Below, piece after piece: positions 17,983 through 63,688 of a stretch of DNA of 64,000 nt. Location of the stretch: assembly GCA_030649895.1 (NCBI GenBank), contig JAUSEX010000031.1:2620-66619 (forward strand), read 5' to 3'. This DNA is from Candidatus Omnitrophota bacterium. GTDB taxonomy: Bacteria > Omnitrophota > Gorgyraeia > Gorgyraeales > Gorgyraeaceae. The position numbers and the translations under genes were made by a program. Position 1 is the first letter of the stretch. Each line of letters begins with the position of its first letter. The notes below the pieces were generated by a model. It saw only the letters and a program-made list of their open reading frames with translations, was not told the DNA's origin and made no database searches.

Positions 17983-17986
17983 AGGC

Positions 17987-22866: not shown

Positions 22867-22889
22867 CGCTAAGAGGATAATCGGTAGTA

Positions 22890-32234: not shown

Positions 32235-32245
32235 CGGGCCCATAG

Positions 32246-36144: not shown

Positions 36145-36158
36145 ACTAATAGATACTT

Positions 36159-41511: not shown

Positions 41512-41543
41512 TATCGCGGAACTTATACGGAAGAGATGAATGT

Positions 41544-41977: not shown

Positions 41978-42760
41978 ATGAACTTAATAGTCAGATTTAA
42001 AAAAATAATAGCTGAAAGACAGATTATCAGGGGCATGGTAATAAAAAATTTAAAGAGCAAATATATCGGCTCTATATCAGGGATCTTGTGGGCTGTTATA
42101 AATCCTTTGTTGATTATGCTGGTGATCACCTTTGTTTTTAGCCAGATAATGAAGACAGATATAAAGCATTTTCCATTATTGGTGTTAAGCGCGCTTTTAC
42201 CTTGGAATTTTTTTAATAATTCTATAAATGAATCCGCAGCTTCGATCAGCAGCAATGTCGATGTGTTAAGGCAATTTGTGATGCTTAAAGAGACTATCCC
42301 TATAGCTACGGTAATAACTAATCTTATAACTTTTTTATTTGGTTTTATAATTGTCCTGCCGGTTTTTATTATGTTTAATACAGGCATTGTAAATTATCTT
42401 ATCTTGCTGCCTTTTGTAGTGGTGCTACATTTTATTTTTACATTAGGGATCTCCATGCTTCTTAGTATAATAAATGTTTATTTTAAAGACTTGCCTCAGT
42501 TATTGAATATTTTTTTAATGTTACTATTTTGGCTTACGCCTGTATTTTATTCCATAGATATGATACCTCAAAAATACCACTGGCTTATTATTGCCAATCC
42601 GAGCGCATGTTATATTATTATTTACAGGGCGCTATTATATCAGGGTTTTAGCGGCGGCATATCTATATGGTTACTTGCGATTGGATTTGCTTTGATCAGC
42701 ATAATAAGCGGGTATTTTTTATTTATGAAAAAAGAATCGGAAATCTTGAAATACGCGTAG
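41978..42760 (+). CDS. wzm: ABC-2 type polysaccharide exporter permease (Wzm/TagG-like)
   Basis: 260 aa, six TM helices, ABC-2 family pattern. Immediately upstream of the ATPase. Confidence 0.8.
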   Translation: MNLIVRFKKIIAERQIIRGMVIKNLKSKYIGSISGILWAVINPLLIMLVITFVFSQIMKTDIKHFPLLVLSALLPWNFFNNSINESAASISSNVDVLRQFVMLKETIPIATVITNLITFLFGFIIVLPVFIMFNTGIVNYLILLPFVVVLHFIFTLGISMLLSIINVYFKDLPQLLNIFLMLLFWLTPVFYSIDMIPQKYHWLIIANPSACYIIIYRALLYQGFSGGISIWLLAIGFALISIISGYFLFMKKESEILKYA

Positions 42761-42783
42761 ATAAAAACGATGGATTGAATATC

Positions 42784-45597
42784 ATGAGCATGATATCTTT
42801 AAAAGATGTTGGTTTAAAATATAAGGTAGAGTTTAAAGAAAACGGCAGGATTACAACCGAGGATTTTTTGGCGCTTAAGGATATAAATATAGAGATAGAA
42901 AAAGGGGAAATCGTAGGGATCATAGGTGAAAATGGGGCTGGGAAAACCACGTTACTTAAAATAATAGCCAGGATGCTGGCGCCTGATAAGGGTACAGTTG
43001 ATGTAAATGGCAAAGTCTCTATGCTTATGGAAATAGGGTCTGGTTTTCACAGGGAGCTTACAGGCAGAGAGAATATATATACTATTTCTTCATTATTTGG
43101 CTTTTCAAAAGCGGAGATAGAGGCGAAATATGGTGATATAGTGAAGTTTGCAGCTATAGGCAGGTTTATAAATGCGCCGGTAAAGATTTATTCTCAAGGC
43201 ATGTATATGCGCCTGGCTTTTGCTATAGCGATACATGTGAACCCCGATATCTTGCTGGTGGATGATATATTTGCGGTCGGAGATGTTTATGCGCAGCGTA
43301 AATGTATCAATAAAATGTTTGAACTTAAAGAGCAGGGCAAGACTATTATTTTTGTTAACCAGGATATAGAAATACTAAAAAGATTCTGCACAAAGGGTAT
43401 ATTCTTAAGGGAAGGCAGCGTTGTTAAGGAAGGACCTATAGATAAAATATGCGATTACTATATGGAATCAGTGGGTGAAAAAAAAGGAATTGCTATTTTG
43501 GAAAAAGGTTTATTAGGCGTAGTTTTTAATAATGGCAGACTTATTCTAAGGTGGAAGAACAACGCTATTACATGTGGTTTTGGCGGATATACTATGGTTT
43601 TAACTTCAGGCCGTCAATATCTGTCAAATACTGCTGACTGGGAAGTCCAAAAGTCTAAGACAGGCGATGAAATCATAGCCATAGGTAAATGGCCTGATAC
43701 CCCGCTTATTCAATGCTGGAAAATAGTTTTCTTAAGTGAGAGAGAATTTTCATGGGAAATAACGATGCAAATGTTTGAAAATATTGCTATAGAGAAATTT
43801 TCTGCAGATATTATATTTATAGAGGGATATAAAAAGTGGTTTACTTTGGACAGTGAAACTAGTTTCCCGGAGGCTTTTGTTCACGATGCAGAATGGGAAT
43901 ACAATCTAGTCAGTGATTCTGCCAATAAGCTAATCGGCTTAAAAGGCAATAATCAAATATCAGGCTTTTTACCCGTGGTAATTTTAGACAGGTCTAATGA
44001 TAATATGGAAATAAAATGTGAAGTTTGTAATACAGGCGCCGATATAGGAGGCAGGGCAGTCCGATATCAGTCTCTTTGTCAGAAGCCGGGATTTGATTAT
44101 ATCCAGGATAAATACAGGTGTTTCCTTAGCACGGTAAGAATATTTGAATCTGAAGAAGGCGAGGGTTTAAAAAATTATATTAGTTGTACAAAACAAATAA
44201 TAAGTGAATCCTACATTATACGCAAAGGCTTAATAAGCCTTTTTTGCAAGGATCATAAGGTTGAAATTTATTATCGAGATAAATTACTTACGAGCGGAAT
44301 AGGTTTAAATGTGAGATTTAAATGCCAAGATAAAAATTACAGCCCTCTTGATGGGCAATGGGTTATGCACAAAAAAAATAATGAAGAAATAGCAATAACT
44401 ATTTCTTGGGGCGGGAAATCGCCACTTATTCAAACATGGAAGCTGAAATTGCAGGATGATAATGTTGTAGCATGGGAAATAGAGATGGAGATTAATGAAA
44501 AGACAGTGATAAGAAATAAGGAAGTAGAGCTGACACTTAATGAAGAATATGAGAAATGGATAACTGAGAATGAAAGAGGAGATTTTAAAAAAGCAGAGAA
44601 ACAAGGCAGCACAGTGCTTTTAAATAAATATATAAATGAACATATCGGCGTAGAGGGCATATCTAAAGTGGATGGGTTAGTTTTGCCTGGTGTAATATTT
44701 AATTATAAAGACGCGGCCCCCAAGGTTTCTTACATTTCTAAAATAAAAGAAGGGATAATGGCTACAAAATTACGGTATACGGAAATAGACTGTAAGGATA
44801 ATTTTTATATTCCATCAGGAAGGTATGAATATTTTAAAGGCGAGATAAAAGTGATAGCTGATCAAGAAAAAAGCCAGGATTTGATAAATAAAAAATCGGC
44901 TATTGGTAAGAAGGAATCATTAAACAGAATAGAACTTGGCAGCGTGTCGTTAGTTTTTGATAACGGAAGAGGCAGGATTTTTTGGAACGGTACAGAATTG
45001 ACAAAAGGATTAGGGCTGTACGCGTCTATTTTTTTTAAAGACGTATGGCATGATTCCTCTCAGGCTTTTTGGGAGGTTAAAAAGTTAGACCAAAAAAGAT
45101 TATCGGCTGTTGGTTATTGGCCTTGGCTGCCACTGATACAGACTTGGAAGATTTGTTTAGAGGATGAAAATACTGTTGTGTGGGATATAAAAAAAGAAAT
45201 TTGGGATGATGTTATTTTAAAAAGAGAACAGGTAAATCTTATGCTTTCGGATAACTATAAGGCATGGTCTGCTCATAAACGAATTCATGGAAAGTTTCCC
45301 AGTACATTTAGCAAGCATAGTGGTATTTTTTGGGATAGACTGTGGTGTGGGGATACTACCTCTCCTATTAGAGTTGAAAAGCAGAGGATTGGAAATAGGA
45401 TTTTAGGTGGGCAGCTTTTACCAGCTGTTGCTCTTGATTGTTCAATAGATTGTCCTGCCCGCTATTTCATTATTGAAAATACGGATGATTTATTTGAAGC
45501 CCGGGTTCTACAGTGTGAATTTGATTCGAATCAGAAATGCGGCGTTAATAAAGATAGAGATAAATATTTTGAAGGGCGAATCAAGGTAAATATTTAA
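42784..45597 (+). CDS. wzt: ABC transporter ATP-binding protein (Wzt/TagH-like) with ~690-aa C-terminal extension made of three novel bipartite modules
   Basis: Start placed at ATG 42784 (MSMISLKDVGL) after the permease stop. Walker A GENGAGKTT, ABC signature YSQGMYMRLAFA, Walker B ILLVDDIFAVGD. The C-terminal repeats start near 43510, 44230 and 44940. Confidence 0.85.
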   Translation: MSMISLKDVGLKYKVEFKENGRITTEDFLALKDINIEIEKGEIVGIIGENGAGKTTLLKIIARMLAPDKGTVDVNGKVSMLMEIGSGFHRELTGRENIYTISSLFGFSKAEIEAKYGDIVKFAAIGRFINAPVKIYSQGMYMRLAFAIAIHVNPDILLVDDIFAVGDVYAQRKCINKMFELKEQGKTIIFVNQDIEILKRFCTKGIFLREGSVVKEGPIDKICDYYMESVGEKKGIAILEKGLLGVVFNNGRLILRWKNNAITCGFGGYTMVLTSGRQYLSNTADWEVQKSKTGDEIIAIGKWPDTPLIQCWKIVFLSEREFSWEITMQMFENIAIEKFSADIIFIEGYKKWFTLDSETSFPEAFVHDAEWEYNLVSDSANKLIGLKGNNQISGFLPVVILDRSNDNMEIKCEVCNTGADIGGRAVRYQSLCQKPGFDYIQDKYRCFLSTVRIFESEEGEGLKNYISCTKQIISESYIIRKGLISLFCKDHKVEIYYRDKLLTSGIGLNVRFKCQDKNYSPLDGQWVMHKKNNEEIAITISWGGKSPLIQTWKLKLQDDNVVAWEIEMEINEKTVIRNKEVELTLNEEYEKWITENERGDFKKAEKQGSTVLLNKYINEHIGVEGISKVDGLVLPGVIFNYKDAAPKVSYISKIKEGIMATKLRYTEIDCKDNFYIPSGRYEYFKGEIKVIADQEKSQDLINKKSAIGKKESLNRIELGSVSLVFDNGRGRIFWNGTELTKGLGLYASIFFKDVWHDSSQAFWEVKKLDQKRLSAVGYWPWLPLIQTWKICLEDENTVVWDIKKEIWDDVILKREQVNLMLSDNYKAWSAHKRIHGKFPSTFSKHSGIFWDRLWCGDTTSPIRVEKQRIGNRILGGQLLPAVALDCSIDCPARYFIIENTDDLFEARVLQCEFDSNQKCGVNKDRDKYFEGRIKVNI

Positions 45598-45621
45598 GAT
45601 TTATTTTATTAGATAGATAAA

Positions 45622-46656: not shown

Positions 46657-46679
46657 TAGATTTTTATCTAAAAATTATT

Positions 46680-47696
46680 ATGCAAGATAAGCCATTTAAT
46701 TTTTTAAAATCTCAAAGCAGCCTTTTAGATATACGAAAACCGGCATTTTGCTGTATAGGTATTTCTACAGGGTGCATTTTGAAATGCAAGATGTGTTCAG
46801 TGTGGAAAACCAAATATGTTGCTATGCCACAAGAACCTACTATGGATGAATGGTTTCGTTTTATCGAGCTTGCTGCCGGCTTAACGGAAAATTCTATCGA
46901 GATAAACGTTTCCGGAGGAGAGCCTTTATTAGATGAAAGAAATTTAGCGTTAGTTAAATTTAGCGCCAAAAAAGGACTTTCAACTTCTATGCCTACCAAC
47001 GGTTTTCTCATAGACAAAGAGATGGCTTATAAAATAGCAGATAGCGGACTAAGCGCGATAGGCATATCTTTGGATGGTATCAAAAAAGATACGCATGATT
47101 TTTTAAGAGGCGTAGAGGGATGCCATGACAAAGCAATGCAGGCGATTGACTATCTTGATAGATGCTGCGGAAATATAGGAATAGGAATTTTGACAACTAT
47201 ATCAGAGAAGAATATCGATGAAATTATTGAGCTAACCAGGTGGGCTAATGAAGACAATAGAATCGAAACTATTATTTTTCAGGCGGTAACTCAGCCATTT
47301 AATACTCCTTTTGACGATGAATGGCATGATAAAAGCGAATATAGTTTTCTCTGGCCGAAAGACATCAGAAAGACCCATGTCTTATTAGACGAGATAATAA
47401 AACTAAAAAAAATGGCGTATAAGATATCCAACACAGTTTCTCAATTGGAAACTTTTAAGAAGTATTTTGAAAACCCCTTGGGATTTATTAAAAAAGATGC
47501 GTGTAATGTGGATTTTTATATGAATATAAATCAATTTGGAGATGTATATATGTGTCCAAGAAAAAAAGCTGTAGGGAATATAAGAAAATGCACTCCAAAA
47601 GATATGTGGTATTCAGAAGGCGCAAATCAAATGAGAGAAGAAATAAAAAGCTGCAGAGTAAATTGTCATCATGTATTAAATTGTTGTTATGAATGA
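46680..47696 (+). CDS. radical SAM/SPASM-like protein, paralog 2
   Basis: 338 aa. FCCIGISTGCILKCKMCSVW, SGGEPLL, KSCRVNCHHVLNCCYE. Confidence 0.8.
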   Translation: MQDKPFNFLKSQSSLLDIRKPAFCCIGISTGCILKCKMCSVWKTKYVAMPQEPTMDEWFRFIELAAGLTENSIEINVSGGEPLLDERNLALVKFSAKKGLSTSMPTNGFLIDKEMAYKIADSGLSAIGISLDGIKKDTHDFLRGVEGCHDKAMQAIDYLDRCCGNIGIGILTTISEKNIDEIIELTRWANEDNRIETIIFQAVTQPFNTPFDDEWHDKSEYSFLWPKDIRKTHVLLDEIIKLKKMAYKISNTVSQLETFKKYFENPLGFIKKDACNVDFYMNINQFGDVYMCPRKKAVGNIRKCTPKDMWYSEGANQMREEIKSCRVNCHHVLNCCYE

Positions 47697-50600
47697 GGAT
47701 GGTGGTTATCGTATGAACAGCTGGACAGCAAAATTTAAGAATAAAATATATGCGTTCGAAAAGATATTCAAGCAAAAAAGGACAAGCTTTCGCACGATAT
47801 ATAATGGTACCTTAAGGCTCTTTCTGGATGAAAATAATAGGCTTAGGATATATTATAAAGACAATGAGCTTACAAAAGTCTCCGGTTTGAATACTAACAT
47901 ATTATCCGAAGCTAATTGGCATAGTTCGCTTGACTCTATAGTTAATAATATAGAAAAACTATCTTCTGAAGAGATGATTATCCATTTGAAGCATAGTCAG
48001 CTTCCTCTTGTGCAAGCTTGGCATCTGAAATGCAACTCAGAAGATACGCTTAGCTGGGAAGTAAATATGCATATAAAAAAACCGTTACGTATAGATTGTA
48101 TGAAAGCATCCTTGTTCTTATCCAAAGCTTATGAGGATTGGATAATTCCTGCCAAACAAGATACATTTCCTCCTTTTTCTGATTTTCAATGGAAAAGTAT
48201 GAATTCTTTTGAAGATAAAGCCGGCTTCATAGGCCTTGCTTCTTCCTTAGAAGAATTTCCTGGCATGTCTCTTAAAAGTTCTGATAACTCAAAAGCTTCA
48301 TTAATAATCCAAAATACCGATATAAATCTTTCTTCCCGTGTTCTTGAAATTCAATGCGAAGATAAAAAAGAATTCTACCAGCCCGGCACCTACTCTTTTC
48401 TTAAGGCCACAATACAGTTTTATCCTGATAAGAATGTTTTAAAAAATATTCTCAAAGAAATAAAGGAGCAGGAACAAAAGAAGCAGGACGAGCTAATGCT
48501 TCAAGAAGAAGAGCGCCTCAAAAAAGCCAAAGAGGAAGACCATAAGCTCCGCACCCTTCAAAGCGGCCCCTTTAGGCTCCATATAGACCAGCATAACAGG
48601 TTTCACCTCTATTATAAAGAACAAGAGCTTACCAAAGGAGTTGGTATTAATATGGGAATACTCTCTGAAGGTAATTGGTATGCTGCCTGTGATTCCAGAA
48701 TTGAAATAAAAAGGCCGTCTTCTAATAAGATGCTTGTACAGTTTATTTACAATAAGCTTCCTGTTATTTGCTCATGGCAGATAGATTTTAAGCCGGAAGG
48801 CGTGTTTACCTGGGTCATTGATATATCTTTTAAAGAATCTCTACGCATAGATCGAAGCAATGTTTCTTTATTCTTATCCAAATCTTACGATAATTGGATT
48901 GCTCCTCCTGAAGAAGGGAGTTTCAGCTCTTCATTCGGCCCAGGGTGGCAAAGGATGAATACTCACAAAGACAATGCTGAATTTACCGGATTATATTCTT
49001 CTTCAGAAGAATTTCCGGATGTGATTTGTAAAAGCTCAAAGGATTCAAAAGCTTCATTAATAATCCAAAATACCGATATAAATCTTTCTTCCCGTGTTCT
49101 TGAAATTCAATGCGAAGATAAAAAAGAATTCTACCAGCCCGGCACCTACCCTTTTCTTAAGGCCACAATACAGTTTTATCCTGATAAGAATGTTTTAAAA
49201 AATATTCTCAAAGAAATAAAGGAGCAGGAACGAAAGAAGCAGGAACAGGAACAAAAACGGCTTCAAGAATTAGAAAGGCTTAGACAGGAAGAAGAAAGGC
49301 TTAAGCAGGAACAGGAACAGAAGAAACAGGAAGAAAATCACAAACAGAATGAATTTAAAAAAATATACATGTTATTAAAAGAAGACGAAAAAGATTTTCC
49401 ATTAATCGAGGATAATGATGTGTATGTATATGGAGACTGCGAAGACTTGCATGACAAAATTGCTTCTCAACAAGGAAATTTTAATAATCTCATTTCAAGA
49501 ATAGAGACAGCCAAAAAAAAAGGTTTAAAGGTTAATATAAAAATAGGCGTATCGAAATTTAATTTTTTTAAGCTAGACACTATTATTCAATTTTATTCTA
49601 GATTGCTAAATAGCCGCATAGACCTGCGTTCTGTTTCTTTGAATTTTTTACCCGCAAAGAATATTTTTTATTATTTCGCCGAGTATATAAAACAATTAAA
49701 TATGCAGCTCGAATCGAGTAATATAGGGCTTTTCTTAAGAGACAAAGAGTTGCCCGGCCTTCTTTGGGCTATTTCTAGCCAAGCAGATCAATATAATGAG
49801 AAAGATTTATTGCGATTATTGGGAGTTATAACGGAGCACGCCTTTATTGGACCTCAAACTATCGTTCTAGATATTAATCATAGCTGTAATACTAATTGTA
49901 TACATTGTTGGATCCATACGCCAAAGCGTAAGGCCTCTCTACAGCTTAGTAATTTAAAGATGGACATCTCTTTATATAAAAATATTATTGATGATGCGGC
50001 AAATCTTTTATGTGACGAGATTATCATACAGGGAGATGGCGAGCCTCTTCTAGACGATAGATTTTTAGAAATGACCTGTTATGCGCGGGATAAGGGATTA
50101 AAAGTTTTATTTTTTACGAATGGCATACTTTTGGATAAAGAAAAAGCCGGTAGAATAATAGACTTGGAAGTAAACGAGATATTCTGCAGCCTTCCTGCAG
50201 GAACAGATAAGACTTATGCCTTGGTTAATCCGGGGCATTCAAAGGATACCTTTCATCATATAGCAGCGAATTTAAAAAATTTAAGCTTGATGAGAAAAAA
50301 ATCAGGAAAAAACAAACCATTATTACAAATGTCCCATGTTATCCATAACCTGAATTATCATGAGTTAGAAGAAATGGCTGAATTGGACGCTTATATAGGA
50401 GCGGATAAAACAAGATTTTATCTTGCCCGCTTAGATGAGAATATAGATTTTTTAAAATTAAGCCCTAGACATATTAAGATAATAAAAGAATCCCTAAAAA
50501 AGACAGCGCCCTATTTAAAAAGCAAGCACGTAGAATTACAAGACAATATATATTTTCAGCTAGAAAACTATAACTCTACAACAGGTTATTGGTCTAAAAA

Positions 50601-50910
50601 TGCGTTTTTAAAGTCTGGCTGTCCGGTGGGATGGTTTTTTTCTTTAATATTAGCCAAGGGTGAAGTAAGCATTTGCTGTCATTTGCGCGTTGTTGATCAT
50701 TTAAAACTCAAATCTTTTGAAGATATATGGAAATCTGAATCTTATAATAAATTCAGAAGTCAAGCCAAGTATTTAGCAAAAAACAAAAATATTGTTTTTA
50801 ACAATAATATGAAACTATATGATGAATTTTGCAATCATTGCGATACTCATCAGGTTATTTTAAGGATTTATGACTTGCTTCAAAAGTATAATCTGCATAA
50901 ATTTTTATAA
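47689..50910 (+). CDS. giant multidomain radical SAM/SPASM protein (2 novel bipartite modules + E/K/Q-rich coiled coil + rSAM core)
   Basis: 1073 aa. The N-terminal half has two copies of the Wzt-type module. A KEQEQKKQ.../RLQELERLRQEEERLKQEQEQKKQEE linker follows. The C-terminus carries CNTNCIHC (CxxxCxxC), GDGEPLL, and a Cys-rich tail (CPVGW...ICCH, CNHCD). Confidence 0.8.
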   Translation: MNEDGGYRMNSWTAKFKNKIYAFEKIFKQKRTSFRTIYNGTLRLFLDENNRLRIYYKDNELTKVSGLNTNILSEANWHSSLDSIVNNIEKLSSEEMIIHLKHSQLPLVQAWHLKCNSEDTLSWEVNMHIKKPLRIDCMKASLFLSKAYEDWIIPAKQDTFPPFSDFQWKSMNSFEDKAGFIGLASSLEEFPGMSLKSSDNSKASLIIQNTDINLSSRVLEIQCEDKKEFYQPGTYSFLKATIQFYPDKNVLKNILKEIKEQEQKKQDELMLQEEERLKKAKEEDHKLRTLQSGPFRLHIDQHNRFHLYYKEQELTKGVGINMGILSEGNWYAACDSRIEIKRPSSNKMLVQFIYNKLPVICSWQIDFKPEGVFTWVIDISFKESLRIDRSNVSLFLSKSYDNWIAPPEEGSFSSSFGPGWQRMNTHKDNAEFTGLYSSSEEFPDVICKSSKDSKASLIIQNTDINLSSRVLEIQCEDKKEFYQPGTYPFLKATIQFYPDKNVLKNILKEIKEQERKKQEQEQKRLQELERLRQEEERLKQEQEQKKQEENHKQNEFKKIYMLLKEDEKDFPLIEDNDVYVYGDCEDLHDKIASQQGNFNNLISRIETAKKKGLKVNIKIGVSKFNFFKLDTIIQFYSRLLNSRIDLRSVSLNFLPAKNIFYYFAEYIKQLNMQLESSNIGLFLRDKELPGLLWAISSQADQYNEKDLLRLLGVITEHAFIGPQTIVLDINHSCNTNCIHCWIHTPKRKASLQLSNLKMDISLYKNIIDDAANLLCDEIIIQGDGEPLLDDRFLEMTCYARDKGLKVLFFTNGILLDKEKAGRIIDLEVNEIFCSLPAGTDKTYALVNPGHSKDTFHHIAANLKNLSLMRKKSGKNKPLLQMSHVIHNLNYHELEEMAELDAYIGADKTRFYLARLDENIDFLKLSPRHIKIIKESLKKTAPYLKSKHVELQDNIYFQLENYNSTTGYWSKNAFLKSGCPVGWFFSLILAKGEVSICCHLRVVDHLKLKSFEDIWKSESYNKFRSQAKYLAKNKNIVFNNNMKLYDEFCNHCDTHQVILRIYDLLQKYNLHKFL
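48290..48477 (+). repeat. intragenic near-identical direct repeat, copy 1 (copy 2 at 49046-49233)
   Basis: The two 188-nt copies differ at 2 positions (756-bp period). Flanking module sequence has diverged to ~50% amino-acid identity. Confidence 0.85.
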
Positions 50911-50922
50911 AGGATTTTAGCT

Positions 50923-53115
50923 ATGAAAATAGTCCTTGCTAATTTGCCATGGAATAGTTTTGGAAAAGTAGGGGTTCGGGCAGGTTCGAGATGGCCGCAT
51001 TTAAAAGGCCGTACTGAAAAGCATTATTTACCTTTTCCTTTTTTCTTGGCGTATACGGCAGCTTTGCTTAAAGAAAATGATTTTGACGTGAAGTTGATTG
51101 ATGCTATTGCCGAGAAAAGATCGTATAAGGGGTTTTTGGGCGACATAAAAAAACTTAAGCCGCGCATCCTTATCTGCGAAACTTCAACGGTTACCTTGGA
51201 GCATGATATAAAATTTTTAGAAAAGATAAAGAAAGAGGTTTCGGGTATTTTTTTTGTAATTTGCGGCCCTGATATCAATATAAGGCAACCTGCTTTTCTT
51301 GAAAAATATAGATTTATAGACGCTGTCCTTGCCGGAGAATACGAATTTACAGTTCTTGACTTGGTCAGGTGCATCCGGGAAAATAAGGAGTTAAATAATA
51401 CGCCGGGCATTATATATCGCGATTCAAATAATGTTAAGGTTAATCCATTCCGCCCCCTGATTAACCTGGATAAATTGCCATGGCCATTGAGAAAAGGGCT
51501 GCCTATGGGCATGTATAATGATACGCCAGGGGATATGCCTATACCGTCAGCGCAAATGCTTGCCAGCCGCGGTTGCCCTTATAGATGCAAATTCTGTCTT
51601 TGGCCTCAAGTTATGTATCAAAGCAATAGTTACAGGGCCAGGGATATAATTGACGTGGTGGATGAAATGGAATATTTAATAAAAGAGATGCATTTTAAAT
51701 CAATATATTTTGATGACGATACTTTCAATGTGGGCAAGGGTCGGATGTTAAAGTTGTGCGATGAGATAAAAAAGCGGAAGCTGGATATTCCTTGGGCAAT
51801 AATGGCAAGGGCTGATTTGATGGATAGGGAAATTTTAGAAAAAATGAGAGAGACAGGATTATTTGCGGTTAAGTATGGAGTAGAATCTGCGTCACAAGAA
51901 CTTTTGGATAATATAAATAAGAATATGGATATTAAGAAAACAGAAGAAATTATAAGGCTTACAAAGAAGCTGGGCATTAAAACTCATTTGACGTTTACAT
52001 TCGGCCTTCCCGGCGAAACTAAAGAAACTATACGAAAAACAATAGATTTTGCGTTAAGATTAGACCCTGCTACTATCCAATTTTCCATAGCTACGCCTTT
52101 TCCAGGGACATCTTTTTATGAAGAGATGATGGCGAAAGGCCATATTATTTCCGAAAATTGGACAGAGTATGACGGGAATCATAAAAGCGTCATAGGTTTA
52201 CCTGATACCACAAAAAAAGACCTTGAATTTGCCATAAGGTCTGCTTATAAAGAGTGGGCTGTTCATTGTTCTAGAAGAAATACATTTAAGAAATTAGGTT
52301 ATTACCAGTTAATGTCAAAATCATTAAAGGTGCATGGAATTTTTATAACATTTTTTAAGATTATAAGATTTTTAACACGATATTTGTTTCTATATCTCAA
52401 AGAAAAAATATTTTTTAAAAAAGAGATAGAAAATAAGACAAAAGAAAATGGCCTTAAAATCGGCAGATTAATATTAATATTTAATGGCAACGGCCTGGTA
52501 TTGTATTGGGATGATATGCGGTTGACGAAAGGAGAAGGTTTCGCAAGTTTATTTAGTTTTCAAGGAAAATTATCGCAAAAACTTTTTAATCAATGTTGGA
52601 ATTTTGAAAGGGTAAATAATAATGAGCTGTTACTTACAAGGAGCCAAGATGGCGTTGGTATGGATGAGACATGGAGGCTGAAGATTATAGATGAAAAGCA
52701 GATTGATTGGGAGATAGAGATTAATTTAAAGAATGAAATTGAATTTAGCGCCAAAAAGGCCATGCTTATTTTGTCAAGCAGGTATCGTACGTGGATAGAT
52801 AGCTGGGGCGAAGGCAGGTTCTATCCTATGACAGATTATAGAAATGTAGAATTAAGAAATCCTAGCACCGGTTTTATAGGGTTAAGAGGGCGCAAAAAAC
52901 TAAAAGGCCAACTGCCAACTATCTTGCTGGAATTATCAGGAAATAATGGCAGCTATTTACCTTTTATCAAAAATGCCAAGTCGATTTTTGGCGCCAGGGT
53001 GCTTGAGGCGCAGATAAAAAACTTCAACGGGCATGGTGAAAAATATTTGCCTGGCGCATATAAATTATTTTCTGGAAGAATAAAGATTGTAGAAGAAGAT
53101 TTTAGCAAGAGATAA
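50923..53115 (+). CDS. B12-binding radical SAM protein fused to a C-terminal novel bipartite module
   Basis: 730 aa. N-terminal 470 aa is paralogous to the 19904 gene (CPYRCKFC). The C-terminal ~220 aa (from GRLILIFNGNGLVLYWDD...) matches the Wzt/giant-rSAM module. Confidence 0.85.
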   Translation: MKIVLANLPWNSFGKVGVRAGSRWPHLKGRTEKHYLPFPFFLAYTAALLKENDFDVKLIDAIAEKRSYKGFLGDIKKLKPRILICETSTVTLEHDIKFLEKIKKEVSGIFFVICGPDINIRQPAFLEKYRFIDAVLAGEYEFTVLDLVRCIRENKELNNTPGIIYRDSNNVKVNPFRPLINLDKLPWPLRKGLPMGMYNDTPGDMPIPSAQMLASRGCPYRCKFCLWPQVMYQSNSYRARDIIDVVDEMEYLIKEMHFKSIYFDDDTFNVGKGRMLKLCDEIKKRKLDIPWAIMARADLMDREILEKMRETGLFAVKYGVESASQELLDNINKNMDIKKTEEIIRLTKKLGIKTHLTFTFGLPGETKETIRKTIDFALRLDPATIQFSIATPFPGTSFYEEMMAKGHIISENWTEYDGNHKSVIGLPDTTKKDLEFAIRSAYKEWAVHCSRRNTFKKLGYYQLMSKSLKVHGIFITFFKIIRFLTRYLFLYLKEKIFFKKEIENKTKENGLKIGRLILIFNGNGLVLYWDDMRLTKGEGFASLFSFQGKLSQKLFNQCWNFERVNNNELLLTRSQDGVGMDETWRLKIIDEKQIDWEIEINLKNEIEFSAKKAMLILSSRYRTWIDSWGEGRFYPMTDYRNVELRNPSTGFIGLRGRKKLKGQLPTILLELSGNNGSYLPFIKNAKSIFGARVLEAQIKNFNGHGEKYLPGAYKLFSGRIKIVEEDFSKR

Positions 53116-53119
53116 TGAT

Positions 53120-54379
53120 ATGAAAAATATTTTCTATAATTGCACTAACGTTTTTAGAATTAAAAGGCTTTTTGGGAACTATATTGATACTATTAGTGTT
53201 TTTGACGGCTTATACGCATATAGAGGCCCTGGTTTCGCACAGATAGATTTAACGAACAACTGCAATAATGATTGCATAGGCTGTTGGTGTAATTCCCCTC
53301 TTTTGGAGGAAAAAAAGATTGATCCTGAGATAAAAAAACAAAGCCTTCCTTTCAAAAGGGTTATAAAGTTGATAGATGAGCTCTATAAAATGGGGGCTAG
53401 CCACATATATTATGCGGGTGGAGGAGAACCATTTATGCATCCTCAGATTATGGATATTCTCAGATATACAAAAAAGAAAGGGTTTACATGCTATGTTAAT
53501 ACGAATTTTACTTTAGTTGATGAAAAGGCCGTGAAAGAGTTAGTGGGTTTAAAAATAGATCATTTGACCGTGAGCGTTTGGGCAGGAACGCCGCAAGTTT
53601 ATTCTACCACTCACCCTAGTAAAAACGAAGATACGTTTTATAAAATAAAAGAAATGTTGAAGTTGCTAAATACGATTAAGCATAAATATCCTATAATAAA
53701 ACTTTATAATGTTATTTTCAATATGAACTATCATAGCATAGAAACAATGGTTGAGTTTGCTGCCCAAACTGGTTCGGAAACAGTAGAATTTACCGTTATA
53801 GATACGATACCAGGAAAAACGGATAAATTATTACTAAACGACAAAGAGGCGCGCAGTTTGCTTGATGACTGCGGAAGATTAAAGGAAAAATACGGAGATT
53901 TTAAAAATAATGTTCAATTGCTGGGATTTGAGCAATTTATGCGCAGGATTTCAAATATTGATGCTGTATCTGCGGAATATGATTCAAACATTATAGGGAA
54001 GATACCTTGCTATGCAGGGTGGGCATTTGTAAGGATATTAGCGGATGGCAATGTTAATTCATGCCTTAAGTCGCATAGATTTCCGGTTGGAAATATACTT
54101 GGCCAGGATTTTCGTAAGATTTGGAACGGTTCATTGCAGAGGCGTTTTAGGGAGAAAACAGCGGAGTTTAAACAAGGAGATTCTTTCTTTTCCTTGATCG
54201 GCAATGACCCTGATTCTAATATGGGTTGCTATAAAAGCTGTGATAATATAGGACATAACATGAATATGCACGGCAAATTTACTTCACTTAATAAATTAGA
54301 GAGAAATGCCTTAAAAGGCATAGCTAATATCATGAAAACCATAAGGAAAATCAAGGAGGCGGCAAATGGCAGAAACTAA
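53120..54379 (+). CDS. radical SAM/SPASM-domain protein
   Basis: 419 aa. CNNDCIGC (CxxxCxxC), AGGGEPFMH, and a C-terminal Cys cluster (CYAGW...CLKSH, CYKSCDNIGH). Confidence 0.8.
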   Translation: MKNIFYNCTNVFRIKRLFGNYIDTISVFDGLYAYRGPGFAQIDLTNNCNNDCIGCWCNSPLLEEKKIDPEIKKQSLPFKRVIKLIDELYKMGASHIYYAGGGEPFMHPQIMDILRYTKKKGFTCYVNTNFTLVDEKAVKELVGLKIDHLTVSVWAGTPQVYSTTHPSKNEDTFYKIKEMLKLLNTIKHKYPIIKLYNVIFNMNYHSIETMVEFAAQTGSETVEFTVIDTIPGKTDKLLLNDKEARSLLDDCGRLKEKYGDFKNNVQLLGFEQFMRRISNIDAVSAEYDSNIIGKIPCYAGWAFVRILADGNVNSCLKSHRFPVGNILGQDFRKIWNGSLQRRFREKTAEFKQGDSFFSLIGNDPDSNMGCYKSCDNIGHNMNMHGKFTSLNKLERNALKGIANIMKTIRKIKEAANGRN

Positions 54380-54537
54380 TTTACAAAAGTTTGTTAAACA
54401 TTGCAAGGCAGGCGGGTTATTTTATGCTATTAGTAGAGGCGTTAAATATGTAACTTGGCGCAATAAATGTAAAAAAATGGGTATAGACTGTGGAAAATTC
54501 AGCAGAGAAAGATAGCTGTATTAAAAAAAGGTGATTT

Positions 54538-55587: not shown

Positions 55588-55610
55588 ATTATATACGAAA
55601 GGAATTTTAA

Positions 55611-56669: not shown

Positions 56670-56670
56670 A

Positions 56671-57717: not shown

Positions 57718-57731
57718 ATATCCTTGACCAG

Positions 57732-58739
57732 ATGAACCAGGACTTTCTCGTTCGCAAGCCTAAATACTGCTGCTGGGTTCTTAATTATCGCTGTATGTTA
57801 AGATGCAAGATGTGCTACATCTGGAATATCAAAGACGATAAAAGCCAGGAAACTACCATGGAGGAGAAAAAGAAATTTGTCAAATCCTTGCGCGGCATGG
57901 TAGGCCCTGATTTTGAATTTCACTTATCAGGCGGGGAGCCTTTAATGACAGAGGGGGTTTTGGATTTAGTTAGTTTTATTGCTGATGAAGGATATAAGAC
58001 AAATATGGTTACAAATGGCTTTCTTATCGATGAAAAAATGGCAGAAGATGTTATGAATTCTAAACTGGGGAGCGTTACTATTTCATTAGATGGAATAAAT
58101 CCAGATACCCATGATTATATCCGAGGCGTAAATGGCAGCTATTCCAGGATAATGGAAGCTATCGAATATCTGGATAGGTCTAGAAAAGATAAAAGCCCGA
58201 AAATCTCCATGTTGACTGTTATAATGGAACGCAATTTAGATGAGCTGCTTGAGCTTGCAGAATGGGTTCAACAGGATAAGAGGTTAGAGATGATAAGCTT
58301 TCAGGCAATAAACCAGCCTTTTTGCGAAGATATGGATAAAGAATGGTTCAGAGAAAATAAAAATAGTTTTCTATGGCCTCAGGATAAAGCAAAAACCAGC
58401 TTTATTATGGAGAGGCTTAGAGAATTAAGGTTAAAAGGGAATAAAATAGGGAATCACCATAATCATTTTTTGCATTTCAGGGAATATTTTAAGGATCCGA
58501 ACACATTTTTAAAGAAGATAAAATGCAATCTTGGAGATTATGAGTTTCATGTTGATCCGTACGGGAAGATGTTTTTCTGCTCTTTTACAGATTCGATGGG
58601 AAATATAAAAAAAGATGATATAAATAAAATCTGGTATTCGCCGGAAACAAAAAAAATAAGGCAGGATGTGTATAATTGCCGCAGAAACTGCCATATAATG
58701 ATTAATTGTTTTTATGAAGATGAAGCCTGCATTACGTAA
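57732..58739 (+). CDS. radical SAM/SPASM-like protein, paralog 6
   Basis: 335 aa. YCCWVLNYRCMLRCKMCYIW, SGGEPLM, YNCRRNCHIMINCFY. Confidence 0.8.
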   Translation: MNQDFLVRKPKYCCWVLNYRCMLRCKMCYIWNIKDDKSQETTMEEKKKFVKSLRGMVGPDFEFHLSGGEPLMTEGVLDLVSFIADEGYKTNMVTNGFLIDEKMAEDVMNSKLGSVTISLDGINPDTHDYIRGVNGSYSRIMEAIEYLDRSRKDKSPKISMLTVIMERNLDELLELAEWVQQDKRLEMISFQAINQPFCEDMDKEWFRENKNSFLWPQDKAKTSFIMERLRELRLKGNKIGNHHNHFLHFREYFKDPNTFLKKIKCNLGDYEFHVDPYGKMFFCSFTDSMGNIKKDDINKIWYSPETKKIRQDVYNCRRNCHIMINCFYEDEACIT

Positions 58740-59982
58740 AACATTTTTTATAACAGTGCCAGCCGTATTGATTTTTCTCATCGTGCTGGAGTTATGCTTG
58801 AGGATGTGCGGGTATTTATATATACAGCGTCACAATCATGAAGCGCATACCAAAACAACGGAATTAAGTAAGGATAAACTCAGGATTCTTTGCTTGGGAG
58901 ATTCTTTTACTTTTGGCGTGGGGTCTAGTCCTGAAAACAATTATCCAAAGCAGTTAGAAAGAATATTGCAGGAAAATATCTCTGAGAAAATAAGCGTTAT
59001 TAATGGGGGCCGCCTTGCCAATACTTCATCGTTACTCTTAAAAAATTTACAAGAAAATATTAATAAATATTCTCCGTCTATCATAGTTGTAATGATAGGA
59101 ATGAATAATAGTTGGAACTTAGAAGGCAGCAGTTATTTTTTGTTAAATAGCAGCATAGGTTTACTGGAAAGACTGGAAAGAATGTCAAGCTCTTTCCGTA
59201 TATACAAATTATTAAAGATAGGATGGGTTAATTTTAAATATAAAATAGATGGAAATAAGAAAATAGCTTCTGCTAATAATTCGATTCGGAAAATAAAACC
59301 TGAATCATTAGAGTTATCCGCTATTGGCAATGAATTATTCTTAAAAGGGGAGTATATCCTGGCTATAGAGAAGTTGCAGGAGTCATTAAAAATAGATAAC
59401 AACAACTACGATGCGTATTTATTTTTAGCAGGTATGCGAAATACTCAGAAAGAATTTCAATTAGCTGAAAAAGAGATATGGCAAGCTATTAATTCGATAG
59501 ATGAATGGGACGATCATCTTATCTGCACAGTGCTTCTAGCCATCAATAGGCTTGGCGATAAGAAAGAAGCAGAATTAGTAAAACTGAAATCGTATTTTAA
59601 AAGTAAATATTATGGGAATAAAAAGAGCAGGCTACTTAAGATAATAGAGGCAGATTTAGATTTTTCAAAAAAAGAAACCATATCTAAAGTGCTGGAATAT
59701 GATTTGGAACGGATAGTTAGGTTGGCTAGGGAGAACAGAGTAACGCTTATTTTGCAGACTTATCCAAGGAGCATACTTGAGAATATTACTATAGAAACAA
59801 TAAGCCGAAAATATAATAGTTGCTTAGCAAACAACGAAATAATATTTAAAGAAAAGGCTCGAAGCGATTTTTTTGTTGCCGATGGCCATTGTAATGAGAA
59901 AGGATATGAATTAATTGCGGAAAATGTGTATGATATTTTGGTTAAAGAAGAAATGTTACCTAGAAAAAGAACAGGAGAATAG
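58714..59982 (+). CDS. membrane-anchored SGNH/GDSL-family hydrolase with TPR-like C-terminal region
   Basis: 422 aa. N-terminal TM, then GDSFTFGVG (GDS-x block I) and later SGNH blocks. Overlaps paralog 6 by 26 nt. Confidence 0.6.
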   Translation: MKMKPALRKTFFITVPAVLIFLIVLELCLRMCGYLYIQRHNHEAHTKTTELSKDKLRILCLGDSFTFGVGSSPENNYPKQLERILQENISEKISVINGGRLANTSSLLLKNLQENINKYSPSIIVVMIGMNNSWNLEGSSYFLLNSSIGLLERLERMSSSFRIYKLLKIGWVNFKYKIDGNKKIASANNSIRKIKPESLELSAIGNELFLKGEYILAIEKLQESLKIDNNNYDAYLFLAGMRNTQKEFQLAEKEIWQAINSIDEWDDHLICTVLLAINRLGDKKEAELVKLKSYFKSKYYGNKKSRLLKIIEADLDFSKKETISKVLEYDLERIVRLARENRVTLILQTYPRSILENITIETISRKYNSCLANNEIIFKEKARSDFFVADGHCNEKGYELIAENVYDILVKEEMLPRKRTGE

Positions 59983-59986
59983 AATA

Positions 59987-61045: not shown

Positions 61046-62012
61046 GAGCCCAAAAACCTGTCTTCTGACTGTAACAAATAATTGTGTTTTGCGCTGCAAA
61101 ATGTGCCATCTATGGCAGCTTAATACCGCAGAAAATGAAGTTAATATAGATGACTGCAAAAGATTAATAGATTCTTTTAAGGGGTTTGGGCCAGAACCTG
61201 TAGAGGTGCATATTATTGGAGGAGAATCCTTGATTAAAAAAGGAGTATTAGACTTGATCTCGCATATAAGCAACAAAGGATCTAGGACTGTTATGACTTC
61301 ATGCGCATATACTATAGATGAAACAATGGCAAAGGCAATTGCCGGATCTGGTTTAAATATGTTAAATATATCCATAGATAGCTTAAACCCATTAGTTCAT
61401 AATTTTTTAAGAGGGCGAGATGATTCTTTTCAGCGCGCAATGAGCGCAATTGATTATCTGAGTAAGTATAAAGATAATAGACTGAGATTAGGTATCAACA
61501 CTGTTATTTCAGCAAAGAATTTAGATGATATAGTTGGATTAAGCGAGTGGACACTAGGTAATAAAAATCTGGATTCTATTTATTTTATGGCAGTAATGAG
61601 GCCTTTTGGCTCTAACCTGGACTGGCATTGGTTTAAAAAAGAGGAATATAAGGATCTCTGGCCTTTGGATTATTCTAAAGTTGAACTAGTATTAGATAAA
61701 CTCATTACTTTAAAAAACAAAGGCTCTAAGATAGGGAATCCTGCAAGTCAATTAGAGGTCTTTAAGACATATTTTAAAAATCCTTTCGATTTTATAAAAG
61801 TCAATAGGTGCAATGTTTCTGAGCAAGCCCTTAATATAAACGCATTAGGCGATGTTTATCTTTGTTTTTTTATGGAAAAATTGGGCAATATCAAAGAACA
61901 TAATGTGGCGCAGCTTTGGAATTCCGATAAGGCGCAAAAGATCCGCGCCCAGATGCGCTCCTGCAGGAATAATTGCGAATTAGTAGTGAATTGTTATTAT
62001 GAGGAAAAATAA
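61035..62012 (+). CDS. radical SAM/SPASM-like protein, paralog 8
   Basis: 325 aa. KTCLLTVTNNCVLRCKMCHLW, IGGESLI, RSCRNNCELVVNCYY. 11-nt overlap with paralog 7. Confidence 0.8.
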   Translation: MLNKSPKTCLLTVTNNCVLRCKMCHLWQLNTAENEVNIDDCKRLIDSFKGFGPEPVEVHIIGGESLIKKGVLDLISHISNKGSRTVMTSCAYTIDETMAKAIAGSGLNMLNISIDSLNPLVHNFLRGRDDSFQRAMSAIDYLSKYKDNRLRLGINTVISAKNLDDIVGLSEWTLGNKNLDSIYFMAVMRPFGSNLDWHWFKKEEYKDLWPLDYSKVELVLDKLITLKNKGSKIGNPASQLEVFKTYFKNPFDFIKVNRCNVSEQALNINALGDVYLCFFMEKLGNIKEHNVAQLWNSDKAQKIRAQMRSCRNNCELVVNCYYEEK

Positions 62013-63624
62013 TCGTAGAGATACTAATTTTATAGAGTCTAAAATGAGAAGAAGGAATTATTTATTTTTAATATTAATAATATTAAGTTTTCATGTCTTC
62101 CTAAACTATCAAGTATTGAAGAAAAGTAATATTATAAGAATGGATGATGAAGGAGGGACTATAATAGCAGGCTTGAATTGTTACAATATAATATTCTTGG
62201 ATCATAGCATTAAGCTTGTTAATAAATTAGGTTTTATTTTAGGCCTGCATGGTCAATGCCATCCTCGTTTTGTTGAACTCGCAGAAGCGCTTTCTTGGAA
62301 GGCGCTTAATTTATTTAAAATTTTAGACATAACTTCAATGATTTTAGTAGTTAATGCTATATTTTTTATTATTTTATTAGGCAGTGTATATGGAATTGGT
62401 TCAATAGTTTATAATAGAAATGTAGGCATATTATCTGCAGCGCTGGTTTCAATGTTTCCTTTGGTATTTGGACATTCAAGATTAGCTATGCGAGATTTTC
62501 CTTTGATGTGCATGGTTTCTCTGGGTTTTTATCTGCTTCTGAAGGCCGGTAAATTTAGTTCTAGTTTGTATAGCGTATTATCTGGCGTAGTGTTTGGTTT
62601 AGCGCAATTGACCAAAGAAACTGCTTTTATTTTTTTTCTTACCCCATTAATTTATTATTTTACTGGATCTTACTCGTTGGACAATAAAAAGAAGGTGTTG
62701 CGAAATTTTATTGTTACTTTGGCTTGTTTTTTAATTTTAACCGGAGTTGTATATTTCAGATTAGAAAATCTGCACGCGTTTAAAATATATTTTGGGAAAA
62801 CTTGTTATATCAGGAATTATCCCAATTTTTTTTATTATTTAAAAAATTTTATAGAAATTACAGGGCCATTTATTTTGATTATATCGTTGCCTTTGTTTGT
62901 TCAATACTTGGTTAACATTAAAAGAAGAGAGAAAATTCTATTTGTTTGGTTTATTATCCCGATTATATTGTTTAGCATTACCCCAAATAAAGCTATCAGA
63001 TTTCTTTTCCCCATATTGCCGGCTTTTGCCCTAATCGTAAGCAGCGAAATAGCCAATATTAATTTATCTAAAGAATTTAAAAAGGTATTTTATATTATGC
63101 TGATTTCAATCTCAATACTTCAATATGCGTTTTTCAATGCTGGAATTTTAGATACAAAATTTAAAAACCCGTATTTTGAAGCAGGCATCTTGTCTGTTAG
63201 AAAAGATAAATATTTGCCTGAATATATGAGATTATTGGATGTTTTTAAAAAAGAAGCAAAAAATAATAATGTCTCGGGAAATAAGAATGTAGTTTTTTTA
63301 TTCAATATTCGGGAGATCTATTGGCCGTTTTGGCTGGATACTTGGGTATATAAAATGCCTTTCAATGTATCTAATTCACTGCTGGTAGATGAGGTAGATG
63401 TGATTAATACCTACCATGTTGATTGGGATAAAGAAATTTTGAAAGCGGATTATATTGTTAATAAAACAGGCTTTAAAGAACGGCAAGATTATCGGAATCA
63501 TATTTTAGATGGGTTGGAAAAAGGTTTTATTAAATATAAAGATAGATTTGAATTAATCGCTGACATTAAGCTATTGTTTGATAACTCTGCGGTATACGTG
63601 TATAAAAAAGTTAGTCACAATTGA
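62002..63624 (+). CDS. GT-C membrane glycosyltransferase (GT39/ArnT/PMT_2-like)
   Basis: 541 aa, ~12 TM helices. MFPLVFGHSRLAMRDFPLMCMVSLGFYLL loop region resembles ArnT/PMT-family mannosyltransferases. Confidence 0.6.
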   Translation, partial: RKNNRRDTNFIESKMRRRNYLFLILIILSFHVFLNYQVLKKSNIIRMDDEGGTIIAGLNCYNIIFLDHSIKLVNKLGFILGLHGQCHPRFVELAEALSWKALNLFKILDITSMILVVNAIFFIILLGSVYGIGSIVYNRNVGILSAALVSMFPLVFGHSRLAMRDFPLMCMVSLGFYLLLKAGKFSSSLYSVLSGVVFGLAQLTKETAFIFFLTPLIYYFTGSYSLDNKKKVLRNFIVTLACFLILTGVVYFRLENLHAFKIYFGKTCYIRNYPNFFYYLKNFIEITGPFILIISLPLFVQYLVNIKRREKILFVWFIIPIILFSITPNKAIRFLFPILPAFALIVSSEIANINLSKEFKKVFYIMLISISILQYAFFNAGILDTKFKNPYFEAGILSVRKDKYLPEYMRLLDVFKKEAKNNNVSGNKNVVFLFNIREIYWPFWLDTWVYKMPFNVSNSLLVDEVDVINTYHVDWDKEILKADYIVNKTGFKERQDYRNHILDGLEKGFIKYKDRFELIADIKLLFDNSAVYVYKKVSHN

Positions 63625-63688
63625 GTAATTTCAGATTCTGTGACATTAAAGCTTTCAATTAAGATGCCTGGTTGAGATCGGAACCAAA

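Follow-up and report, generated by a model that had tools for sequence, protein, structure and literature searches.

In glycans that depend on ATP-binding cassette (ABC) transporters, the known sources of diversity are glycosyltransferases and nucleotide-sugar enzymes, together with a few capping enzymes, and the carbohydrate-binding domain PF14524 occurs only in the terminus-dependent subclass of the Wzm/Wzt pathways. The Omnitrophota are uncultivated and are thought to be attached to or to prey on other cells, and their surface structures are likely to matter. This report is focused on a gene string in a 64,000-nucleotide (nt) stretch of DNA, referred to as the window, from a Candidatus Omnitrophota bacterium (GCA_030649895.1; G000:C17:2620-66619), in which a Wzm/Wzt-type exporter is accompanied by a battery of radical S-adenosylmethionine (rSAM) enzymes and shares with two of them a module of predicted carbohydrate-binding fold. 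The string is considered, at about an even chance, to encode an ABC-transporter-dependent, O-antigen-like surface-glycan pathway, with rSAM enzymes editing the lipid-linked glycan and the shared module coupling it to export. In WzmWzt O-antigen exporters, the carbohydrate-binding domain of Wzt recognizes a chemically modified glycan terminus and couples completion of the glycan to its export (PMC9445017).

The exporters of Escherichia coli O9a and Aquifex aeolicus (PMC9445017, PMC6379404) are the closest described counterparts, with an ABC-2 permease paired with an ATPase that carries a glycan-recognizing cytoplasmic C-terminal extension, and with a polyprenyl-carrier glycan, a WecA-type initiator, cytoplasmic transferases, and recognition tied to a chemical change made before export, features for which the present locus has apparent equivalents. 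By contrast, the single small PF14524-type domain of those exporters is replaced here by three tandem modules of approximately 220 amino acids (aa) with a galactose-mutarotase-like fold, the modules are also found on two tailoring enzymes, a WbdD-like kinase/methyltransferase terminator is not recognized, and the tailoring set consists of rSAM enzymes. PF14524 itself, the canonical carbohydrate-binding domain, has no match in Wzt at E<=0.01, and the tandem modules would do an analogous job with a different fold. A UDP-galactopyranose mutase (UGM) homologue adjoins Wzm/Wzt here as it does in the Klebsiella O1/O2 galactan and mycobacterial lipid-linked galactan systems (PMC13649706), although the present UGM is eukaryote-like, a GlfT- or WbbO-type galactofuranosyltransferase is not identified, and those systems have no rSAM tailoring. 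The genes by which a Wzm/Wzt pathway is recognized, namely adjacent PF01061 and PF00005 genes together with a PF00953 initiator and a GT4-family glycosyltransferase, are all found in the window, and a genome-wide search detected no other exporter of this type.

The exporter lies in a single, closely packed string of genes on the + strand, which occupies 36159-64000 of the window according to the open reading frame (ORF) listing and Pfam scans and reaches the contig end past the window, over a total of at least 37 kb. The string starts with the GT4, a WecA/MraY-family transferase, a flavin adenine dinucleotide (FAD) protein, a NodU-type carbamoyltransferase, an SxtJ-like protein, Wzm, Wzt, and two rSAM paralogs (rS1-rS2), continues with a 1073-aa rSAM enzyme, a 730-aa rSAM enzyme with a B12 domain, a 419-aa rSAM-SPASM enzyme, a 49-aa ORF, and four further paralogs (rS3-rS6), and then runs through an SGNH hydrolase with tetratricopeptide repeats (TPR), rS7-rS8, and a GT-C-type (PMT_2) transferase. 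A first-pass annotation, made from the letters of the sequence and its ORFs, had described an exporter locus with twelve rSAM enzymes starting at Wzm; all of the genes that it named are present and intact on the + strand, although the four assembly genes lie upstream of its start at 41978, and the eight ~340-aa paralogs, which it had read as one tandem run, form three blocks of 2+4+2. The count of twelve was right: eleven intact rSAM genes lie inside 41978-63624, with PF04055 well above the cut-off in each, and the twelfth lies upstream at 19904-21337, its product being 30% identical to that of the gene at 50923. With two over-long ORF starts corrected, neighboring genes are spaced by -26 to +24 nt, which bears out the tight packing reported earlier, whereas one long operon is inferred from this spacing only. 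The ORFs are intact, with orthologues 46-80% identical elsewhere, and none is a pseudogene.

The shared module is found in three copies in the tail of Wzt, in two at the N-terminus of the 1073-aa enzyme, and in one at the C-terminus of the 730-aa B12-type enzyme. Wzt (42667..45597, +) has PF00005 at aa 70-201, followed by ~700 aa without a Pfam match, and probably starts at 42784/42790, since its orthologues begin at the matching ...SLKDV... segment; a hidden Markov model (HMM) of the module places its copies at 43477-44142, 44212-44853, and 44896-45588. Those of the 1073-aa enzyme (47689..50910, +) are at 47767-48417 and 48523-49173 and are split by linkers rich in E, K, and Q, and that of the B12-type enzyme (50923..53115, +) follows a C-terminal linker at 52417-53088. 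Similarity among the three proteins is significant by BLAST (E 1e-9 to 1e-27) and by HMM (domain E 1e-64 to 1e-77), and the HMM, built from 23 copies, detects no copy elsewhere in the genome. No Pfam model matches the module. The first-pass annotation had called the module novel, and this stands for its sequence, which defines a new family by the models obtained, and not for its fold, which is a known one. An exhaustive profile search retrieved the module in only 663 of 1.84 billion cluster representatives, typically with 2-9 copies per protein. In the 1073-aa gene, a 299-nt direct repeat (48190-48488 and 48946-49244; 87% identical, 756 nt apart) covers the C-terminal third of module 1 and its E/K/Q-rich linker, which recur nearly unchanged in module 2, the remainder of both modules having diverged, a pattern suggestive of partial gene conversion or of a recent partial duplication. 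The orthologue of this enzyme at locus L002 has two module copies that do not differ in the alignment.

A model of the module, predicted by AlphaFold2 from the alignment, consists of a helix followed by an all-beta domain (predicted local distance difference test score [pLDDT] 88.9, predicted template modeling score [pTM] 0.87). Foldseek (E 1.7e-7) and, at Z 12-17.6, an independent VIA search both assign this model to the galactose-mutarotase-like supersandwich fold. The VIA matches include galactosaminidase 9awt (Z 17.6, root-mean-square deviation [rmsd] 2.8, 204 aa) and the aldose-1-epimerases 3nre (Z 15.1) and 3mwx (Z 14.8), with 119 chains at Z>=8; the others are mostly accessory domains that bind sugar in GH2, GH36, GH38, and GH97 enzymes and in phosphorylases. 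In catalytic mutarotases such as aldose 1-epimerase, an acid/base His/Glu pair is conserved. In the 23 copies, the residues W, F, T, W, Y, W, G, and N occupy the invariant or near-invariant columns, from which His, Glu, and Asp are absent; because the conserved columns are aromatic together with T, G, and N, and lack an acid or His, the module looks like a binding rather than a catalytic domain, and an assignment as a catalytic aldose 1-epimerase was rejected on the same ground.

The eight paralogs are each ~340 aa long, share 34-52% pairwise identity, and have PF13186 (SPASM) above the cut-off in every case. Along the + strand they comprise rS1 (45622-46656) and rS2 (46680-47696), each with PF04055 and PF13186, then rS3 (54538-55587), rS4 (55611-56669), rS5 (56671-57717), and rS6 (57732-58739), and lastly rS7 (59915-61045, with a likely start at 59987 preceded by AGGAG) and rS8 (61035-62012), all of rSAM+SPASM layout. 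Their invariant cysteines are C33, C37, and C40 (the CX3CX2C motif) and C275, C293, C326, C330, and C336. The SPASM motif proper has seven cysteines in the arrangement CX9-15GX4C ... CX2CX5CX3C ... C; the paralogs have five, as CX12GX4C ... CX3CX5C, a pattern that fits one or two auxiliary clusters alike. All NCBIfam matches of the paralogs are far under the cut-offs, and their sequence profile retrieves generic rSAM core matches only from the PDB. The predicted structure of rS1 (pLDDT 86.1) is matched best by BlsE (7vob; Z 27.0, 297/327 residues, rmsd 3.0), followed by SkfB (24.6) and SuiB (23.0), with PqqE and anSME also within Z 22.5-24.6. BlsE, a cytosylglucuronate decarboxylase, is a sugar-acting rSAM enzyme, and the paralogs share with it a ~330-aa single-chain layout without a recognizable peptide-recognition domain; by contrast, they are only 16% identical to it, reach 57 bits against a cut-off of 400 with TIGR04466, and keep five invariant C-terminal cysteines, and the likeness, as modeled, is structural only.

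The three larger enzymes of the string, for which the earlier assignment to the rSAM family proved correct (PF04055 above the cut-off in each), differ in domain content. The 1073-aa enzyme carries an rSAM+SPASM part at aa 720-1051 (49846-50841) behind its two modules, and the 419-aa rSAM+SPASM enzyme (53120..54379, +), whose orthologues are 64-73% identical, is related to this catalytic part (26% identity over 324 aa, E 1e-35). The 730-aa enzyme combines PF04055 (82 bits) with a B12-binding-like region (PF02310, 29 bits, under the cut-off), and the upstream enzyme (19904..21337, +; PF02310 38 bits), which is the more HpnJ-like of the two, belongs to a separate glycan gene group. By profile, both B12-domain enzymes are nearest to HpnJ (266.6 bits for the 730-aa enzyme and 397.5 bits for the upstream one, against a cut-off of 577.6), and by sequence the 730-aa enzyme also matches AprD4 (6fd2, E 1.7e-26). 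HpnJ, a hopanoid-associated B12/rSAM enzyme, and AprD4, the apramycin rSAM diol dehydratase, are the closest named relatives, and both act on amino sugars, whereas the 730-aa enzyme has an additional linker and sugar-binding module. A hopanoid pathway was rejected for these HpnJ-like enzymes because no squalene-hopene cyclase (PF13243) match occurs in the 97.7%-complete genome. The genome, of 1.68 Mb, holds 59 radical SAM and 16 B12-binding domain matches, and cobamide is probably scavenged because no CobS was found in the genome. A scan for transmembrane (TM) segments found none in the rSAM enzymes of the string and found them in the esterases and the GT-C enzyme, a partition that fits cytoplasmic editing followed by periplasmic finishing.

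The neighborhood is conserved in other Omnitrophota, as the check proposed with the first-pass annotation was meant to establish. The order Wzm, Wzt with 3-4 modules, [paralogs], a 1061-1111-aa enzyme, a 727-737-aa B12 enzyme, a 405-418-aa enzyme, a small ORF, and [paralogs] recurs in GCA_041643295 and GCA_028716965, and orthologues of the 1073-aa enzyme, 1061-1111 aa in length, are found at L002 and L004. Genome G093 has a close form of the locus with a 779-aa enzyme in place of the long one, and genes encoding the GT4, the WecA-like transferase, and the UGM homologue are commonly found ahead of Wzm in related loci. In G143, G155, and G157, the same domains are shuffled within a related gene order; the module is N-terminal to a B12-rSAM domain, three rSAM-SPASM domains are joined in one 1284-aa protein, or two B12-rSAM domains, plus a module, in one 1261-aa protein. 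In G187, which has at least 14 paralogs, two are fused in a 686-aa protein, and the fusion genes of other Omnitrophota are located at L017:8888-12742, L019:6747-10532, and L020:4187-6247; such natural fusions may help to show which of the enzymes work together. A quick maximum-likelihood tree places each of rS1-rS8 with orthologues from another family (eight orthologue groups; Shimodaira-Hasegawa-like approximate likelihood-ratio support 95-100), and orthologues are 54-80% identical, in comparison with 34-52% between paralogs; G187 and G093 have additional paralog groups not present here. The tree pattern implies that the duplications are old, that every copy has been kept, and that the set differs by lineage.

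In a census of 36,145 genera, the module was found in 174, including ~96 of the 599 Omnitrophota genera, mostly of class Gorgyraeia. Among the Hydrogenedentota, 51 of 65 genera have weak matches, which is proportionally more than in Omnitrophota. A SPASM gene is present <=10 kb from the module in 51/84 and 9/12 of the carriers in the upper score bands and in 12/75 of those in the lowest band, against 9 at random places, with under 5 carriers tried in the top score band. Outside Gorgyraeia, close members of the paralog family are almost lacking; 12/18 and 9/12 of their carriers have the module <=10 kb away, compared with 0 at random places. Within the genus, 2 of the 12 other genomes searched carry the module. 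GC content is 34.9% in 41978-64000, compared with 41.4% for the genome and 39.0% for 1-36158 of the window. The locus behaves as a low-GC accessory, variable surface-glycan island, which has possibly been laterally exchanged.

Taken together, the carbohydrate-binding fold, the sugar-acting nearest rSAM relatives, and the conserved gene order support the proposal, already made in the first-pass annotation, of a glycan-directed system linked by the module. Initiation would be performed by the WecA-family transferase, which is expected to start the glycan on polyprenyl phosphate at the cytoplasmic face; the GT4 would extend it, and the UGM homologue would supply a furanose donor, probably UDP-Galf. 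The soluble rSAM battery is then envisaged to edit the lipid-linked glycan by hydrogen abstraction, with epimerization, oxidation, deoxygenation, decarboxylation, ring rearrangement, or C-methylation as candidate reactions; each of the eight BlsE-like paralogs may handle its own position or residue, and the 1073-aa and B12-type enzymes would be held on the polymer by their galactose-mutarotase-like modules. In the Wzt tail, the three modules would stand in for the carbohydrate-binding domain that is usual there, binding the completed glycan and linking it to export through Wzm/Wzt. After export, the anchored SGNH esterases and the GT-C transferase could finish the glycan, which the single Wzy_C-family protein of the genome might attach to lipid A-core or protein. 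The number and set of paralogs differ by lineage, like tailoring genes between O-serotypes, and the few transferases alongside many rSAM enzymes (at least 14 paralogs in G187) argue for editing after assembly. A more specific form of this proposal, put forward tentatively and at somewhat less than even likelihood, is that a simple lipid-linked polymer of common sugars is rewritten residue by residue, under anoxic conditions, by an interchangeable rSAM set, with modules guiding the enzymes and gating the exporter, giving sugars new to O-antigens; the product would carry, for example, C-methylated, epimerized, deoxygenated, or ring-rearranged residues. If correct, this would constitute a new logic of glycan diversification, with 11 to >15 rSAM enzymes physically tied to an exporter by a recognition module, and a new source of sugar-directed radical chemistry. 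The locus offers a testable function for a large block of the unusually many rSAM genes of Omnitrophota, and the modules, as a family, are a candidate for a new cytoplasmic carbohydrate-binding domain. No account of an rSAM-packed glycan-export system was found in the literature searched, which left most subscription journals outside its reach.

Several observations weigh against the proposed editing of a lipid-linked glycan, the whole support for which consists of homology, predicted folds, and gene linkage. The P1 domain of YidC has the same galactose-mutarotase-like fold in a non-sugar setting, such that the fold alone is no proof of sugar binding; the peptide maturases SkfB, SuiB, PqqE, and anSME rank close behind BlsE, and rSAM+SPASM enzymes as large as the paralogs are known mainly as peptide maturases; the rSAM array contains a conserved 49-aa ORF; the related loci of G187, G093, and G155 have no UGM homologue; no WbdD-type chain-terminating enzyme is recognized; and the acceptor may be lipid A-core or protein. 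Furthermore, the eight paralogs could use nucleotide sugars instead of the polymer, and this is the main alternative to post-assembly editing: within the same glycan pathway, the paralogs would make rare donors from soluble nucleotide sugars, replacing short-chain dehydrogenase/reductase, aminotransferase, and dehydratase enzymes, and only the module-bearing enzymes would touch the polymer. The action of BlsE, the best structural match, on a small nucleoside sugar agrees with this, as do the lack of module and membrane segment in the paralogs and the string itself, among whose genes no ordinary nucleotide-sugar tailoring gene was seen in Pfam scans. However, 8-14 donor sugars would call for about as many glycosyltransferases, whereas the conserved core has one GT4 and one initiator, and paralogs are fused together and closely linked to the module-bearing enzymes, and we regard this alternative as unlikely overall. 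An action on lipid, in which the target of the rSAM enzymes would be the polyprenyl carrier, the acyl chains of lipid A, or a lipid spanning the membrane and the resulting glycolipid would be flipped by the transporter, is very improbable. The paralogs do match the tetraether lipid synthase Tes weakly, GDGT-MAS (7tom) is among the structural matches (Z 19.4), the B12-type enzymes match a lipid-biosynthesis B12/rSAM family, and Omnitrophota are listed among candidate producers of unusual lipids; yet the lipid-family profiles match no better than those of dozens of other rSAM families, far under cut-offs, the targeting module has a carbohydrate-binding fold, and the neighbors are sugar enzymes (UGM, GT4, carbamoyltransferase, GT-C, SGNH).

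The 49-aa ORF, referred to as pep49 (54366..54515, +), is basic and aromatic-rich, overlaps the stop of the 419-aa enzyme by 14 nt, and lies between this gene and rS3. It leaves a small opening for a cluster for peptides that are ribosomally synthesized and modified after translation (RiPPs), in which pep49 would be a precursor that is cross-linked or epimerized by the rSAM-SPASM enzymes, maybe glycosylated, and exported by the ABC transporter. Sactipeptide, ranthipeptide, PQQ, and streptide clusters likewise combine multiple rSAM-SPASM genes with a conserved small ORF and an exporter of the ABC type; rSAM-SPASM enzymes are classic peptide maturases, of which SkfB, SuiB, PqqE, and CteB match rS1 strongly (Z 20-24.6); and pep49 is a conserved small ORF, translationally coupled within the array and rich in aromatic, basic, and Cys residues. 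Those clusters nevertheless differ from the present locus, in which an RiPP recognition element (RRE) or PqqD domain, a leader peptidase, and a C39-type exporter were undetected in Pfam scans; PqqD/RRE (PF05402) has no match at E<=0.01 in the eleven rSAM enzymes, although Pfam can miss divergent RREs. The exporter belongs to the polysaccharide Wzm/Wzt type and has a sugar-binding fold in its tail. Moreover, pep49 has no variable core: its 12 relatives, 55-71% identical, are conserved over the whole length; there are same-position orthologues, and the ORF also occurs at L002:19920-20075, L004:9858-10001, and L022:16729-16872. The ORF is usually absent from related loci, occurring free-standing in about 7 of 301 phylum genomes in comparison with a module present in ~96 of 599 Omnitrophota genera. 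A double-glycine leader was rejected, as invariance is limited to the second Gly, the pattern of hydrophobic residues misfits, and no C39 peptidase is encoded among the ORFs of the string. The N-terminal motif of pep49 is Q-K-F ... G-G-x-F-Y-A ... R-G-x-K-Y, and its first ~30 residues are homologous to parts of the module-bearing enzymes of loci L017, L018, and L019, either the N-terminus (as in G143 and G157) or an internal linker (as in G155). In the present locus, they resemble aa 455-485 of the B12-type enzyme. By its sequence, pep49 looks like a basic and aromatic linker element present as a detached copy rather than an RiPP core, and perhaps forms a membrane-interface or docking helix; a predicted complex of its product with the 419-aa enzyme scored 0.00, which is evidence neither way. 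No characterized RiPP family exceeds its cut-off and no sulfatase family occurs in any ORF of the string, so the known systems that had been named as possible refutations, an RiPP cluster and a sulfatase/anSME island, were not encountered, and a peptide product is deemed highly improbable.

The assembly genes at the start of the string agree with a surface-glycan pathway. The GT4-family glycosyltransferase (36159..37325, +; PF00534 110 bits, PF13439) has orthologues in the same position in L002 and L019. The polyprenyl-phosphate sugar-1-phosphate transferase of the WecA/MraY family (37322..38314, +; PF00953 111 bits) has 11 TM-like segments and scores 64 bits with the WecA model TIGR02380, under the cut-off. 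The FAD protein (38330..39655, +), identified by phmmer against solved UGMs as a eukaryote-type homologue of the PRK07208 group, matches 3uka (E 8.5e-43) and 4dsg (E 1.9e-42) over aa 5-413 and reaches merely 35 bits against 304 with the bacterial Glf equivalog TIGR00031; by these comparisons it is a true full-length UGM homologue, an upgrade from the earlier "UGM-like", and the homology suggests a furanose in the product. It also adjoins Wzm in L002, L017, and L019. The NodU/CmcH-type carbamoyltransferase (39664..41511, +; PF02543 337 bits, PF16861 233 bits) is accessory, being absent from L002, and the SxtJ-like small membrane protein (41508..41963, +; PF19588 36.9 bits) precedes the ABC-2 permease Wzm (41978..42760, +; PF01061). 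The best NCBIfam match of Wzm is the galactan export permease Wzm/RfbD, far under the equivalog cut-off (60 vs 380 bits), and those of Wzt are TagH and Wzt, also under equivalog cut-offs; the best matches of the two proteins are thus galactan, teichoic-acid, and capsule exporters.

The interleaved esterase and membrane glycosyltransferase reported earlier were confirmed by Pfam. The SGNH/GDSL hydrolase with TPR (58714..59982, +; PF13472 48 bits) has an N-terminal membrane anchor, with a TM-like segment at aa 5, and is predicted to be an extracytoplasmic esterase or acyltransferase. The GT-C-type (PMT_2/ArnT-like) enzyme (61999..63624, +; PF13231 43 bits, PF03901 32 bits) has at least eight TM-like segments. 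An anchored alpha/beta-hydrolase-like gene, of which the window holds the start only (63672..64000, +), carries the string past the window, where C17:66000-73335 (L001) encodes a GDSL protein, a GDSL+TPR protein, a 111-aa ORF, a GT9, a distant rSAM-SPASM enzyme, and a TPR protein before the contig end, a stretch read as three anchored esterases, the GT9, the rSAM-SPASM enzyme, and the TPR protein. Elsewhere, the genome has one Wzy_C-family gene (PF04932, 85.7 bits, C19:23937-24350), whose product would fit either WaaL or a protein O-oligosaccharyltransferase, and an LpxC gene (324 bits); RpoD and GT9 heptosyltransferase-family genes are also encoded, and the organism is, on this sequence basis, a diderm bacterium. 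The sequencing runs that hold this DNA are groundwater metagenomes, of which one may be the source sample, and no RNA run is among those listed; the named relatives of the window proteins are all Candidatus Omnitrophota.

The best sigma-70-like promoter match, TTGACA-17-TAAACT with an extended TG (36119..36147, +), falls in the gap ahead of the first gene and marks a possible operon start, as a positional hint only. Within the string, promoter-like sites total no more than in shuffled sequences, and intrinsic terminators are likewise at shuffle level; none of either lies in an intergenic gap, and these counts are uninformative. An Rfam scan gave no riboswitch close to the locus. Further rSAM arrays occur in the genome at C19:510-12757, followed by multi-pass membrane proteins and the only Wzy_C gene (C19:23769-24971), at C47:3023-18078 with a GT9, and, in several instances, on C11. 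The B12-rSAM gene at 19904 is part of a second glycan-related group (14165-24857 of the window) with two PMT_2+TPR membrane proteins, a GT2, a SAM methyltransferase, a GT9, and a TPR protein, next to which a MiaB-like gene at 24880 is housekeeping in appearance. Between these upstream genes and the glycan string lie further housekeeping genes, comprising a class A RNase P RNA (33975-34387, 194 bits), right after an RNase H-like gene, and tRNA genes at 32236-32309 and 32662-32735, with a third at 13233-13305. At the beginning of the window are ExbB/TonB genes (59-1782), and at 3208-10387 there is a cluster resembling those of type IV pili or type II secretion (PilM, PilO, secretin, ATPase, and platform protein), with several small ORFs after it up to 12929.

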